Shown: positions 1 through 4,963 of the stretch, piece by piece
Layout: each line of letters begins with the position of its first letter
Numbering within the stretch: position 1 is the stretch's first letter
Virus record (IMG/VR): IMGVR_UViG_2681813429_000002
DNA: 23,970 nucleotides
Strand: one strand, 5' to 3'
Source: a virus
Taxonomy: Duplodnaviria; Heunggongvirae; Uroviricota; Caudoviricetes
The notes under the pieces: generated by a model
Databases searched by the model: none
Told to the model about the DNA's origin: nothing
The model's input: the letters and a program-made list of their open reading frames with translations, nothing else
Position numbers and translations under genes: made by a program

Positions 1-399
1 CCTTTCATGAAAATACGCAAAAGTCGACACACGGCTGTAAGCCACACCCGCCATCGCATACGCGCTGAACCATTCATTCACGCGTACAGACGGCCCCGCC
101 ATCACGCTGAACCAGCGGTTACGCACGGAATCTTCATGCCAGCGGGTATCGCTGTAGCGCGTTTTTTGCTCATCCTCAGCATTGGCATAACTGAAGGACG
201 TAATCAGCCCCAGCGCGTCCGTAAACTCATAACGGTATTTCACGTTAATCCCGTTCAGATCATCACTACCGGGAACGTTCGTCGAGGCATGGAGATACCC
301 CGCGCTCAGCGTGGACTGATGTTCTGCTGCACTCGCTGGCGTAGCAGCGGCGACCTGCCAGACTACTGCGGACAAAATAACAGCACATAATTTACGCAT
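1..399 (-). CDS. lom: Lom/Ail/PagC-family outer membrane protein, N-terminal 133 codons only; 3' end lies beyond the window start
   Basis: Reverse complement of 361-399 reads ATG CGT AAA TTA TGT GCT GTT... = MRKLCAVILSAVV, followed by a signal-peptide-like stretch and beta-barrel-like sequence resembling lambda Lom. Position immediately downstream of J matches lambda. The plus-strand ORF 7..390 in the track is its antisense shadow. Confidence 0.85.
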   Translation of the reverse strand, partial: MRKLCAVILSAVVWQVAAATPASAAEHQSTLSAGYLHASTNVPGSDDLNGINVKYRYEFTDALGLITSFSYANAEDEQKTRYSDTRWHEDSVRNRWFSVMAGPSVRVNEWFSAYAMAGVAYSRVSTFAYFHER

Positions 400-466: not shown

Positions 467-3400
467 TCAGCTAATCGTGATGCCTGCAGTGGCTTTCTTC
501 ATCACCACAACCAGCAAATCGCTGATACTTGCTGTGGGATACCAGTTATTTACCAGCCATGCTGACACCGAAAACTCCAGTGTCATGTGACCGTGACCGG
601 CAGGCATATCAATAACACCACTGTAAATCAGCGTATTATCCAGCGCGGTACGGTTATAAATTTCAGCACCGTTTTTCCGCACTATCAGACGGCATGAGGA
701 GTAAATATCAGTATGCTCTTTCTCATGTTTAGCGCCGCTGAATGCCACCGCCGGAATAACAATCTGCCGGTCAAACGGCTGATCGTCATAAACCCTGACG
801 GTAATGGTTCCTGATGGCCACCGCTCCGGTGCACGGGAGTCCCGGGGGAAAGCTTTGCCCACTGTTTTAACGAGATCGCCTTCAATCTGGTTCGCGGACA
901 ATTTTCCCAGAACCCGACAGTTCTCGTTAATCGTGACGTTGTTGAGCGTCCCGGAGTTCGCATTCACGTTACCGCTGATATCGGCATTTTTCGCCGTCAG
1001 CCGCCCGTCCGGTGTCAGGGAAAATGCCGGAGGATTACCGCCGCTGGTAATGGTGGGAGCCGTCAGATATTTCAGGAACACTTCATTCATAAATATCTGA
1101 TCGCCCTGACCAACAAACATCGGCTTTGTGTTGCCATTCGCAGGATTAATCATCGCAATCCTGTCTGCCGCCAGCAGCACCTGACTCTGCATTCCTGCTG
1201 GCGTATTCTCAATACCGGCACCGATACCCGCAATATAAAGGCGTCCGTCCTGCATCTGCTGCAGTTTCACGGCCCACATGCTGTTCAGGTTATTATTTGT
1301 ATCAACCTGAACTTTCTGTATCTGCTGGATTGCCGCACTCTGATTTTCCAGTTTTTTATTGACGGTCTGCGTGATTTCATTGCTGACATTCGTAATGGAC
1401 GTCCTGATTTCAGCCAGGTCCGGCGCAAGCTGACCGTTATCAATCTGCGTCCACAGCTCCTGGGCCAGATGTGTTTTCCCGATTTCTCCTTTGAAAAAAT
1501 CCAGGTAACCTTCCGCATCATCGCTCGCCCGACCGACAGCCTCCACGAATGCCGATTTGCCAACAGTATTCACACTGCGGATATAAAAATAATAATCATG
1601 GCCCGGTTTGATATTGATACTGGCAGCTATCCAGTACAGCGCCGAGCCAAGATAGCGGGCTGCGGTTTCAACCTGCCTGATATCCGCAATCCGCTTTTCC
1701 GAGAACCAGAACTCAAACTGTACCGTCGGGTCATAAACGGCAAGATGTGGCGTTGCGGTTATCTGAAAATAGCCCGGCGTCAGCTCAATCCGCGACGGTG
1801 CTGCCGGTGCGGCAATCCGGAAGGTGGTGGTGGCAGGTTCACCCTGCTGGCCATAGCTGTTTATCGCCCGCACCGTCAGGGTGTATTCCCCGAGCGGCAG
1901 GCCGCTGAAACGGTGCTCCGTGTCTGCGGTGATGGCGGTGGTCACCAGTCTGGCATCCGTTCCCTTACCACTGGTCAGGCGCAGACTGAAGCGCACACCC
2001 TTCACCACCCGCGGCGTGTCCCATTTCGCCTGCGCCAGATACTGGCCGTCAGCTGCGCTCACCTCCACCGTCAGGTGCTGCACTGCCGGTGGGATGACGC
2101 TGTTCAGGGAACCTGACTGCGGCTCAAAGCGGGCACCGTTATCCACGATGGCTTCTTTTTCCGGTACGTGCTGCACCGCCGTGATGGCAAAGGTGCCGTC
2201 CGTGTTTTCCCGGATGGAGACACAGCGGAACAGGCGACGGCGCAGTGACGGCAGGGAGAGTCCCCACACCCCGTATGTCTCCACACCATCAGGCAGGGTA
2301 CTGACCTGTATCCGGTCCGGCGCGGGGTGTGCGGTGATGTCCACACTCACCGGCTTACCGCTGCCGTTAATCAGGTTCACCGCCGATGTACCTGTCTCCG
2401 GCAGGGTAACCTCACGGTCCAGCGTCAGGGTGCGGGTGGCAGCATCAATGGACAGGACACGTCCGCCGGTCAGGGTCCCGGCATAGTCATTATCACAGAT
2501 TTCAATAATGTCACCGGGTGTGTGCCGCAGCCCCTGAGACCCGAGCGTGAAATCCACCGTCTGCGTTTCCAGCAGTTCGGTCTTTATCACCCACAGTCCG
2601 GCACGGTGGGCCTGACCGCGGCTGGTACAGCCGAACGCGTCCATCTTCAGCAGGTTGCGTCCGTAGCGCAGTATGGCTTCCGGGTCTTCCACCAGTTCCG
2701 TGGAGGTCTGCCAGCCGTTCTGCGGGTCGGTGTAATTCACCTCCACCGCCGTGTGCCGGTCCTTCAGGGCACTGAAGCTGTAGCGGAATCCCACGCCGTT
2801 ATCATCCACCACCACATCGCTGTTGGTGTACGGCCACACCACATCCGACGGGCGGTCCTGAACGAACGTCAGCGTCTGACCGTTCCATACCGGCATACAG
2901 CGCATCGCAGAGCAGAAATCACTGAGAACGTCCCACGCCTTACGCTGTTGTGCCAGGTACGCATTAAAGGTCATCCGCGGCTCGGTCCCCCCGAAACCAT
3001 CCGGGACCGTCTGGTCGCAGTACTGCCCGATGGCATACAGCGCCCACTTGTCCACATCCGCCGCCCCCAGACGTTTTCCCATGCCGTAGCGCGGGTGAGT
3101 CAGCATGTCCCACAGACACCAGGCCGGGTTGTTGCTGTATGCCGGTTTCAGACTGCCGTCCCAGATACCACTATACGTGCGTTTTTCCGGGTCATAGTTT
3201 GACGGCACCTGGATGATGCGACCGCGGATATGGTAGTTCACCGTCATCTGCTGGCCGCCGAACTGCTCCGCATCCACCTGCAGCCCCACAATGGCCGTGT
3301 TCGGGTAGCACTGTTTCACATCGATGATTTCGGTGTATGACGACCACAGCGTCTTATTCTGCAGCTGGTCCGTGGTGCTGTCCGCCGTCTCCCTGACCAT

Positions 3401-3940
3401 CCGGATGTTAAAGGGCCGGGGAGGCAGATTATCCAGAATCACCGAGGCCAGGAACTGTGAGGTGGTCTTGCCGTTAATGGTGACGTCCTTTTCTGTCACC
3501 CAGTTACCGTTACGCTGTAACTGAATCAGCAGGCGGACGGATGCCGGGTTACGGTCACCCTTTGAGGTGGTCTCCACCAGTGACTGCACCCCGAAGGTAA
3601 CCCGCAGGCGGTCAATGTTCGCGGACGTAATGGTGCGCGTCACCGGTTTTGCCTTCGTCACTTCCACGCCCAGTCCGGTTTCAGCTCCGGAGGACTCAAA
3701 GCCTTCCGGTGGTGTCTGCTCCTGCTCCCCGGCGCGCCAGACCGCCGTCACACCGTGTATCACGGGATTGCCGTCCGTGTCCGTCAGTGGGGTTTTGTTC
3801 ACCAGAATACTCTGCAGTCCCTTCACCGGACCTTCTATCGGTCCCTCACCAATCGCATCAATCACGCTCATCATCTGCGTGGATTTGAGATTATCCTTCG
3901 CCTCACGAGGCGTGTGTGCCTTACCGCCACCTTTTCCCAT
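467..3940 (-). CDS. J: Host specificity / central tail fibre protein J (1157 aa)
   Basis: Near-collinear similarity to lambda gpJ along most of its length (N-terminus [21 protein letters not shown]..., internal [31 protein letters not shown]). SD GGGGAAGG precedes the ATG at 3938-3940. The last ~40 residues diverge from lambda. Confidence 0.95.
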
Positions 3941-4044
3941 ACAGCCTTCCCCTGAATAAATTAACCGCCACTTGCCATTCCGTACAGAAGTCGGATATCC
4001 TTCGCCCGAAAAGCATGAAACACATTTCTGCCATGCTAAAGAGA

Positions 4045-4078
4045 AACCCCGGTATCAGCAGATACCGGGGTTTTCTTT
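4045..4078. terminator. Strong hairpin (12-bp stem AACCCCGGTATC / GATACCGGGGTT, loop AGCA) with U-rich tracts on both sides; bidirectional terminator-like
   Basis: Perfect inverted repeat read directly from the sequence, followed by TTTTCTTT on the plus strand and TCTCTTT on the minus strand. Confidence 0.45.
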
Positions 4079-4145
4079 CATGCCCACCGATAATCCTGTT
4101 GGTTAAAACCGGTAATGGCATAAAAATTCTGAATATCTTCACATT

Positions 4146-4173
4146 TTCACACACTGACTGTGGCGCTTATAAT
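4146..4173 (+). promoter_or_regulatory. Candidate sigma70 promoter (TTCACA, 16-nt spacer, TATAAT)
   Basis: -35 TTCACA at 4146-4151 and perfect -10 TATAAT at 4168-4173, inside a 340-bp I-J intergenic insert that lambda lacks. Confidence 0.3.
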
Positions 4174-4179
4174 TTCGCT

Positions 4180-4278
4180 GCGTTAGTGTTTTTTTGCCCG
4201 AGTAACAAAAACAACTCCTTAACATTGATCTTCATTTGTCTGTCCCCGCAGCTCCGCGATCACTGCGGGATTTTTTTA
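4180..4278 (+). ncRNA. Candidate ~100-nt plus-strand small RNA, ending in an intrinsic terminator (7-bp stem CCCGCAG / CTGCGGG at 4245-4269, then T7 at 4271-4277)
   Basis: Promoter-like element upstream, GC stem plus T7 downstream, no RBS-preceded ORF, and a CA-rich stretch ACAAAAACAAC. Inferred from sequence architecture only. Confidence 0.3.
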
Positions 4279-4282
4279 TGTT

Positions 4283-4963
4283 TTATCCCTGTCGCCCGAT
4301 AACCACGACCGTTCCGCCCCCGCCTTCATCACGGGTGCTGATGTCCTGGGATATACGGCGGGAGCCAACCAGCATTTCCCCGTAAGGCACCGGCATCGGG
4401 TTCCCCTGGGCAATCATGTTATCCAGCGAGGAAAAGTACGTGTTCTGTCTGCCGTTATCCGTTGCGCGGTAATCCGGTGTTTTTGCCTTCGGGGCCAGCA
4501 TCTGGGCCACACCGCCCAGAATCATGCTGGCTCCAAGTGAAAACAGCATCGTGGTGGCAGAAAAACCACCGGCTGCCAGGGCTGAACCCCATAACGCCAT
4601 TGATGCCCCGGCAGTGAAGAAAGAGCCCACGATGGCTGCCGCCCCCAGCACAATCTGCAGTCCACCCTTTCCGGCCCCGGCCAGTCGCGGCACAATATGG
4701 ATGACCGTTCCCTCACCCAGCTGTTCGTGAAGACGGGCGTACACCGCCTCCGGTGCCGTGTCATAACCGGCAATACGTATCTGGTACCAGCCTTCGTTCA
4801 TCTGACGGCGAAAGCCCGGCACCTGTAACGACAGCGCCCGGATGGCTTCCGCTGCCGTGTTCACATACAGGCTGAGGCGGCGGCCAAATCGTTGTAAATC
4901 CCCGTGAAGGCAGATGCGTGCCAGTGGCGGTGACGCCAGACAGAATGCGTTCGTCGTTGCCAT
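4283..4963 (-). CDS. I: Tail assembly protein I (226 aa)
   Basis: Strong similarity to lambda gpI (ARICLHGDLQRFGRR..., C-terminal Gly/Ala-rich hydrophobic segment). Its 5' end overlaps the 3' end of K, as in lambda. Confidence 0.9.
   Translation of the reverse strand: MATTNAFCLASPPLARICLHGDLQRFGRRLSLYVNTAAEAIRALSLQVPGFRRQMNEGWYQIRIAGYDTAPEAVYARLHEQLGEGTVIHIVPRLAGAGKGGLQIVLGAAAIVGSFFTAGASMALWGSALAAGGFSATTMLFSLGASMILGGVAQMLAPKAKTPDYRATDNGRQNTYFSSLDNMIAQGNPMPVPYGEMLVGSRRISQDISTRDEGGGGTVVVIGRQG

Follow-up and report, generated by a model that had tools for sequence, protein, structure and literature searches.

The 23,970-nucleotide stretch of Caudoviricetes DNA held in IMG/VR as record IMGVR_UViG_2681813429_000002 (the window, by which we mean the whole of this stretch) carries between its tail genes I and J a small RNA (sRNA) unit, at 4146-4277 on the plus strand, which alignment identifies as the gene for PasB, a known Hfq-dependent sRNA of lambdoid prophages. 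We make this identification because the published Northern probe matches exactly, 82 of 83 nucleotides are the same, the promoter is the same and the unit lies in the same position between I and J. The element is already known and the finding is not new in kind. PasB was discovered in the enteropathogenic Escherichia coli (EPEC) strain E2348/69 by RIL-seq on Hfq (a method that ligates and sequences interacting RNAs) and by Northern blot (Pearl Mizrahi et al, Sci Adv 2021, PMC8550237), and its distribution has been surveyed by Zhu, Shabalina and Storz (bioRxiv 2026, 10.64898/2026.05.13.724894). Taken as a whole, the region is very probably best explained as a PasB gene with an A at position 27 of the RNA, acting in trans on Hfq, with the left part of the spacer forming a separate module. 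The features of the unit are:

4122-4145 (+), conserved block preceding the promoter, AAAAATTCTGAATATCTTCACATT, with little or no variation among all copies that have a promoter.
4146-4173 (+), sigma70-type promoter, with −35 TTCACA at 4146-4151, a 16-nt spacer and −10 TATAAT at 4168-4173; 11 of 12 consensus matches.
4180-4194 (+), predicted 5′ leader, GCGTTAGTG followed by a U-run, absent from the mapped 83-nt species.
4195-4277 (+), PasB sRNA, 83 nt, its ends transferred from the mapping in E2348/69; 82 of 83 bases identical.
4216-4233 (+), probable seed, PasB nucleotides 22-39, UCCUUAACAUUGAUCUUC, including the family-invariant AUCUUC box, at its inferred position.
4221 (+), allelic position 27 of PasB, A in the window and C in E2348/69.
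4245-4277 (+), intrinsic terminator and likely Hfq-binding 3′ end, with a 7-bp stem, an 11-nt loop, an A and U7; the minimum free energy (MFE) and consensus structures agree.

In table S6 of the discovery paper PasB is listed as an RNA of 83 nt on the minus strand of NC_011601.1, from 1466343 to 1466261 in prophage PP6, between E2348C_1436 and E2348C_1437, with AATCCCGCAGTGATCGCGGAGCT as its Northern probe (PMC8550237). This probe aligned with the window at 4250-4272 on the minus strand with 0 mismatches, where 0 matches would be expected by chance. At the E2348/69 locus (E2348CN_0006, EPEC O127:H6, PP6) a tail assembly gene and gpJ lie on either side of an sRNA on the opposite strand, just as in the window; the slot and the antisense orientation are the same and both the terminator and the promoter (TTCACA-16-TATAAT) are identical. 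Over 4122-4282 the two sequences differ at 2 positions and the aligned identity continues past the stop codon of I. The spacers themselves differ in length, 240 bp in E2348/69 against 342 bp in the window, where the left 179 bp are a different and highly structured module. PasB and PasB-2 are separated by one change, at position 27 (Zhu et al, 10.64898/2026.05.13.724894), and from the alignment the window carries a PasB allele altered at this same site, with A at position 27.

A covariance-model search did not name the sRNA. Rfam 15 gave no match at gathering thresholds over the whole window, and a permissive scan of 3850-4400 (E-value up to 10) returned only sub-threshold matches at chance level, for example to SSRC34_2, STnc310 and CopA. 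This absence is uninformative because PasB apparently has no Rfam family. No papers were found in a literature search with the probe, terminator and hairpin sequences.

The late operon of the lambdoid prophage occupies the minus strand across the whole window, running from the holin (23795) by way of the endolysin, Rz, HNH and terminase genes and those for head and tail as far as J. The two genes that border the spacer are:

4283-4963 (−), tail assembly gene I, 226 aa, phrog_32 and phrog_4244 (E = 1e-79 to 1e-87), convergent with PasB.
467-3940 (−), gene J, central tail fibre / host specificity, 1157 aa, phrog_31 (E = 0), annotated alike in related phages.

The counterpart of gene I is labelled as tail tip assembly protein I in the record of phage ASU11. 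Between the start of J at 3940 and the end of I at 4283 there are 342 non-coding bases (3941-4282), compared with a gap of 60 bp in lambda, where I ends at 15444 and J starts at 15505. The original prediction, which was made from the letters of the sequence, had claimed a long non-coding insert at this point with a near-consensus sigma70 promoter at 4146-4173 (+) and a GC stem plus T7 terminator at 4245-4277, and all three are present. Its central proposal of an independent sRNA, antisense to the late operon, expressed in the lysogen and of a type known from pathogenic E. coli, turns out to describe PasB, which was seen by Northern blot and is Hfq-dependent in E2348/69. Its estimate of a transcript of about 100 nt was too long for the RNA as mapped in E2348/69, which at 83 nt is equivalent to 4195-4277.

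The closest records to the spacer are prophages of the PPompW type from enterohaemorrhagic E. coli (EHEC) and phage ASU11, with 100% identity over its length. As had been expected of a real gene, the unit is conserved among related prophages: it was found in 1612 of 5426 complete E. coli genomes and was at least 80% covered in 1445 of the 5426. The unit is more than a chance arrangement because it is widespread in E. coli and because Northern blots and RNA-seq have shown its transcript in a strain whose sequence is nearly the same. Outside E. coli, a set of species-representative genomes gave E. albertii only, plus a few short contigs that resemble contamination, in agreement with the restriction of PasB to Escherichia and Shigella (Zhu et al, 10.64898/2026.05.13.724894). 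The short contigs with PasB-family sequence are labelled Parendozoicomonas haliclonae, Streptomyces flavalbus and a Clostridiales metagenome-assembled genome (MAG) and are most likely contamination with E. coli phage; one contig of a Clostridia MAG matched the search pattern by chance only.

In E2348/69 the size of PasB was corroborated by the Northern band and its stability was Hfq-dependent (PMC8550237), and when hfq was deleted its log2 fold change was −6.8 under the activating and −2.4 under the non-activating condition (PMC8550237). The baseMean values for PasB were 482 and 1082, against 4.8 for I and 15 for J, which is 30-200 times those of the flanking tail genes (PMC8550237). As this is far above the level of the silent late operon, PasB is transcribed independently of it. 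The copy in the window is presumably expressed as in E2348/69.

By RIL-seq PasB had 37 interactions, with about 40 RNAs, and the chimeras that it formed had it as their second RNA in at least 98.7% of cases (PMC8550237). The partners in the activating condition include bfpB, bfpI, ler, perB, ftsZ, galE and rplX (PMC8550237); those in the non-activating condition include E2348C_2648, the 5′ untranslated region (UTR) of napF, map, yhhX, hflX and fabR, as well as the nlpD intergenic region, espC, cesD2, the tolC 5′UTR and others (PMC8550237). The dominant partner was a plus-strand RNA at 743482-743611, with 774 chimeras in three libraries and an odds ratio of 25 (PMC8550237), which we mapped to the stretch of prophage PP2 that separates its SASA esterase gene from its class II holin gene. 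A copy of the same RNA in PP5 contributed 54 chimeras with PasB (PMC8550237). This pre-holin region (743482-743679 +) is non-coding, ends in a terminator-like stem with a T-run and matches no Rfam family; its identity is 100% to phage 434 and 99% to Stx1a phages, Stx1_14040 among them. The record PPompW_14040, which has the spacer of the window at 100%, shares a strain number in its name with Stx1_14040.

These data suggest the following mechanism. PasB would be made from a sigma70 promoter of its own at times when the late operon is silent, with transcription converging on gene I and ending at the 7-bp stem and U7, and the terminator would double as the anchor for Hfq. Apart from the terminator the body is predicted to be essentially unstructured. 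On Hfq the RNA would base-pair in trans, most likely through nucleotides 22-50 (UCCUUAACAUUGAUCUUCAUUUGUCUGUC), and its partners would be host and horizontally acquired mRNAs together with the abundant pre-holin RNA of other resident lambdoid prophages. The direction in which PasB regulates them is one that we infer.

The terminator stem CCCGCAG/CTGCGGG pairs 4245-4251 with 4263-4269 and is followed by an A and by T7 at 4271-4277; a terminator scanner gave an alternative 6-bp register, 4253-4269. A U-tract of 7 is given for PasB in table S5 of the discovery paper (PMC8550237), and an intrinsic terminator is stated as a feature of all Pas sRNAs (Zhu et al, 10.64898/2026.05.13.724894). The stem was unchanged in 14 of 14 aligned variants while the loop varied, so that the 7-bp stem is conserved among relatives. 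In the predicted fold of PasB the terminator alone is structured (MFE −14.5 kcal/mol, z = −0.8).

At the other end of the unit, a promoter scan gave 3 promoter-like sites in 1.5 kb compared with 0.7 expected. The −10 box at 4168-4173 predicts a start near G4180, 7 nt past the box, and a primary transcript of 98 nt. In E2348/69 both the 5′ end as published and the furthest 5′ start of any RIL-seq read are equivalent to 4194-4195, within the U-run of the leader, and GCGTTA with its T-run is kept in all variants. In the 98-nt form the U-run may form a hairpin with the A-rich tract that is 82% paired, though this is of low complexity and not clearly above controls. Across the PasB family the −10 box is TATAAT, AATAAT, GATAAT or TATCAT.

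The block upstream is better conserved than the core promoter among aligned PasB-family copies. It contains a CRP-like sequence TCTGA-N6-TCACA (TCTGAATATCTTCACA, 4128-4143), which agrees with TGTGA-N6-TCACA at 9 of 10 positions and lies just upstream of the −35 box. Its half-sites are invariant among the aligned promoter-bearing copies and the 6-nt spacer is variable. Chance alone would give 0.77 matches of this quality (9/10) per window, and with its centre at −44.5 from the predicted start the site fits neither standard class of CRP promoter; the candidate operator is a lead only. In E2348/69 the level of PasB is higher in lysogeny broth (LB) than in Dulbecco's modified Eagle medium (DMEM) (PMC8550237).

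Pairing was assessed with windowed duplexes and run-length tests on 12 RIL-seq partner regions against shuffled PasB bodies. In the napF 5′UTR a 16-nt run is complementary to nucleotides 24-39 of the E2348/69 PasB, and 0 of 300 shuffles gave one as long; in fabR an 11-nt run pairs with nucleotides 22-32 (p about 0.04). For the other 10 of the 12 regions, the top partner included, complementarity was not above that of the shuffles. The seed was also placed just upstream of the terminator by Zhu et al (10.64898/2026.05.13.724894). Position 27 lies inside both predicted duplexes, and with the A of the window the runs fall from 16 to 13 nt for napF and from 11 to 8 nt for fabR. Since both significant runs cross this position, the two alleles may differ in target preference.

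Several points weigh against this account of PasB as a trans-acting regulator. The −10 box predicts 98 nt while the mapped RNA has 83, for which 5′ processing and a coverage artefact are both possible explanations. All of the expression and interaction data come from E2348/69, and the allele in the window differs inside the predicted seed. Complementarity above that of shuffles was seen in only 2 of the 12 partner regions; the predicted duplex with the top partner, at −23.6 kcal/mol, has no unbroken run longer than 9 nt, a length that does not exceed chance, and Pearl Mizrahi et al did not find a common target motif for PasB (PMC8550237). The invariance of the terminator stem in the 14 variants also means that it has no support from covariation.

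The left part of the spacer, between J and the PasB unit, holds the following features:

3941-4119 (no strand assigned), left module, 179 bp, with no alignable counterpart in E2348/69.
4044-4079 (no strand assigned), bidirectional terminator-like hairpin, not part of PasB, with a 12-13 bp stem, an AGCA loop, an A-tract on the 5′ side and a U-tract on the 3′ side.
4080-4121 (−), second stable hairpin (AUGCC-AUUACCGGU...AUCGGUGGGCAU), on the late-sense strand.

The strong hairpin with a 12-bp stem that had been noticed by the original prediction is present at 4045-4072, but its inclusion with the promoter and terminator does not hold, since the hairpin at 4045-4078 belongs to the 179-bp module that is absent from E2348/69. 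Its stem AACCCCGGTATC/GATACCGGGGTT pairs 4045-4056 with 4061-4072 (12 bp, 4-nt loop), with TTTTCTTTC on the 3′ side, and read in the late sense on the minus strand the stem is followed by CTCTTT. Folding of 4040-4080 gave −24.7 kcal/mol (z = −8.1), with 0 of 200 shuffles as stable, and folding of 4036-4121 on the minus strand gave two hairpins with −41.3 kcal/mol (z = −6.4). The second hairpin has a weak resemblance in Rfam to SSRC34_2 (27 bits against a gathering score of 48). The module is present in 1446 of the 5426 genomes; of 1451 E. coli records, 1442 have it with an identity of at least 99%, and it is 100% identical in relatives with a strongly different sRNA body. In E2348/69 and BP-4795 other hairpins with T-runs are found on the late-sense strand at the equivalent place, so that a late-sense terminator between the sRNA gene and J appears to be common to the three types of spacer. 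The left module is separate from PasB and most likely acts as a late-sense terminator just before J. One possible role is to insulate J and the cargo genes beyond it in the lysogen, with read-through by the Q-modified polymerase; another is to terminate a second small RNA on the plus strand, some 70 nt long (4008-4079). A weak promoter-like site, TTGCCA-18-TATCCT, lies on the plus strand of the module at 3972-4001.

Beyond J itself, PPompW-type prophages have cargo genes, for example effectors of the type III secretion system, and in the window an open reading frame (ORF) of 127 aa at 7-390 (+) is convergent with the end of J and matches no PHROG family.

PasB belongs to a larger family of variants. 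A distant BLAST search placed the unit, with 74-78% identity, in the I-J spacers of another 127 phage records, among them BP-4795, 2851, CP-1639, 1720a-02 and phages of Shiga toxin (Stx) types Stx1, Stx2a and Stx2c, and scanning IMG/VR for the pattern yielded over 120 loci with 42 distinct variants. These more distant units share with PasB the slot, the orientation, the upstream block, GCGTTA with the U-run, the AUCUUC box, the terminator stem and the U-tract, whereas the 5′ body and the terminator loop are strongly different and the −10 box is TATCAT or AATAAT; the unit of BP-4795 type has a poor −35. The elements fixed across the family are the upstream block GAATAAAAWTTCTGAAWWTCTTCACATTTT, GCGTTA and the U-run, a CUCC motif rich in A, the AUCUUC box, and the terminator stem with its U-tract; the body and terminator loop vary. 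Among the variants collected by BLAST, ATCTTC is invariant. We found no published name or expression data for these I-J variants. Three E. coli relatives have 90-92% overall identity; two of them match the left 230 bp throughout and the third has a single 1-bp deletion there, and the other differences fall nearly all within about 4152-4250, in the promoter spacer and the body, with a few just past the terminator. This concentration in the body indicates that the RNA body has been replaced or diversified within the I-J slot, as far as can be judged by alignment.

Some viral contigs in IMG/VR carry two different PasB-family copies 225-670 bp apart (for example at 4419-4692 and at 323-1042). Nineteen copies are without the TTCACA promoter pattern, most of them with unrelated sequence (TCAGGTAAGGGGCGGGCCCCTTACC...CTCTCTGA) in place of the promoter block, joined just before GTTAATG, and these may be promoterless or differently driven.

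A bolder proposal can be built on this family, namely that the I-J spacer is a dedicated slot of lambdoid phages for diversifying sRNAs and that PasB serves cross-talk between co-resident prophages; we consider it unlikely as it stands. If it were true, the fixed promoter block, AUCUUC box and terminator would frame a body that is swapped or mutated to retarget the RNA. The lambdoid phages concerned would be largely of the Stx type, and the principal partner of PasB in vivo would be the pre-holin RNA of other prophages. PasB could then tune the lysis or late genes of a rival phage, with the allele at position 27 shifting its host targets.

The variability of the body can also be read in another way, since a body can vary without loss of pairing to its own antisense strand. 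PasB might act mainly in cis, pairing with the late mRNA at the I-J junction and triggering cleavage or termination, so that J and the downstream cargo genes would be uncoupled from the upstream tail genes on late transcripts that are leaky or induced. In the late-sense RNA of the window, complementarity of at least 10 nt to the PasB body is indeed confined to the antisense site of PasB itself (52 of 52 nt), the partner motif being absent there too, and the late-sense terminator-like hairpin downstream of the sRNA gene and upstream of J in every spacer type suggests a control point. However, the RIL-seq data list about 40 partners in trans and no chimera with the I-J region, E2348C_1436 or E2348C_1437, and late transcripts are almost absent in the lysogen (baseMean 5-15). 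The fixed motifs of the body (the AUCUUC box and CUCC) would not be needed for pairing in cis and point to another constraint, and the ribosome-binding site of J is about 240 nt from the paired region. Action mainly in cis is on this evidence quite improbable, and we retain the account of PasB as a trans-acting RNA.

It had also been suggested that the transcript might pair with GU-rich seeds through a CA-rich tract, in the manner of a sponge or anti-sRNA that titrates core sRNAs such as GcvB, as AgvB does. The tract, ACAAAAACAAC, does occur, at 4205-4215, and the 83-nt form has it single-stranded; prophages are known to encode such anti-sRNAs (PMC4104026), and the abundant chimeras of PasB with another non-coding prophage RNA make titration of one RNA by another conceivable in general. 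The pairing with GcvB-like seeds is unsupported, however: there is no GcvB::PasB among the significant sRNA-sRNA chimeras in either condition, compared with 945-1222 per entry for GcvB::SroC. The consensus of GcvB R1 targets, CACAACA (PMC4104026), is absent from 4180-4277, and the CA tract is among the least conserved parts of the family, with variants AUAAGAAUAAU or AAUAAAAACAAAAC. PasB is nearly always the second RNA of its chimeras, as regulators rather than sponges are, there are no Rfam matches to AgvB or AsxR, and the genomic position is unlike that of AgvB. A sponge is accordingly a very improbable description of PasB. We also rejected an identity with AgvB itself, an RNA of 51-60 nt encoded 3′ of PR′, whose Rfam model gave no match here.

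Least credible of all is that the spacer encodes a small protein instead of or besides the RNA: candidate ORFs exist (22 aa on the minus strand, MKINVKELFLLLGQKNTNAAKL, from about 4236 to 4168; 77 aa, 3921-4154 (−); 128 aa, 3916-4302 (+)), related ones are auto-annotated in phages ASU11, 1720a-02 and PhiR12_4, and the difference at position 27 is synonymous in the 22-aa frame (GTT vs GTG), but the start of this frame is ACG in about half of the variants, including the commonest (n = 28), indels shift it to give unrelated C-termini of 22, 31 and 32 aa, and the 77-aa and 128-aa ORFs are without a PHROG family and span the left module, which is replaced in E2348/69 and has a 1-bp deletion in one relative.

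PasB, read as a regulator with many targets in trans, can be compared with two groups of prophage sRNAs. AgvB and AsxR of EHEC prophages (PMC4104026; RF02702, RF02703) are likewise prophage-encoded, bound by Hfq and expressed in the lysogen, and they too have a conserved 3′ part and a variable 5′ part. They are found 3′ of PR′ in the moron site, within a convergent pair of sRNAs, and are 51-60 nt long (PMC4104026), while PasB sits in the I-J spacer, which along the late operon is some 19.5 kb downstream of the holin gene, and so outside the location that characterises AgvB and AsxR. AgvB mimics the GcvB target with CACAACA (PMC4104026), a sequence that PasB does not have, PasB behaving as a multi-target regulator. 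Neither RF02702 and RF02703 nor Esr41 (RF02676) matched the window at the gathering threshold or 3850-4400 in the permissive scan. PasA, PasC, PasD1, PasD2 and Esr41 are like PasB in being Hfq-dependent, in their intergenic location in lambdoid prophages and in having targets in both the core and the accessory genome; their genes are near the Q / esterase / holin region and are mutually linked, whereas the PasB gene sits within the tail operon, its inheritance is independent and a genome that has it often has no other Pas gene. No sequence similarity was detected between PasB and these five RNAs. In the Sakai strain (NC_002695) EcOnc11 (Sp10, 1946819-1946867 (−)) and EcOnc10 (Sp12, 2234239-2234287 (+)) have been reported (Tree et al, 2014, PMC4104026), as Hfq-bound clusters of 49 nt with about 33 million reads each (PMC4104026); these are possible candidates for sRNAs of an I-J spacer.

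The interest that remains is in the function of PasB and in the leads from this analysis, all of which are computational. The locus offers as handles the seed at nucleotides 22-39, which lies over the only allelic difference, the CRP-like operator and the 98/83-nt 5′ end; further handles are the large unnamed family of variants in Stx phages and the dominant partner RNA that other prophages encode. Among the accessory sRNAs of E. coli PasB ranks with the most widespread: about 30% of complete genomes have it, strains of sequence type 131 (ST131) and O157:H7 among them. In EPEC it contacts the mRNAs of the master virulence regulators ler and perB, of the bundle-forming pilus and of effectors such as map and espC.

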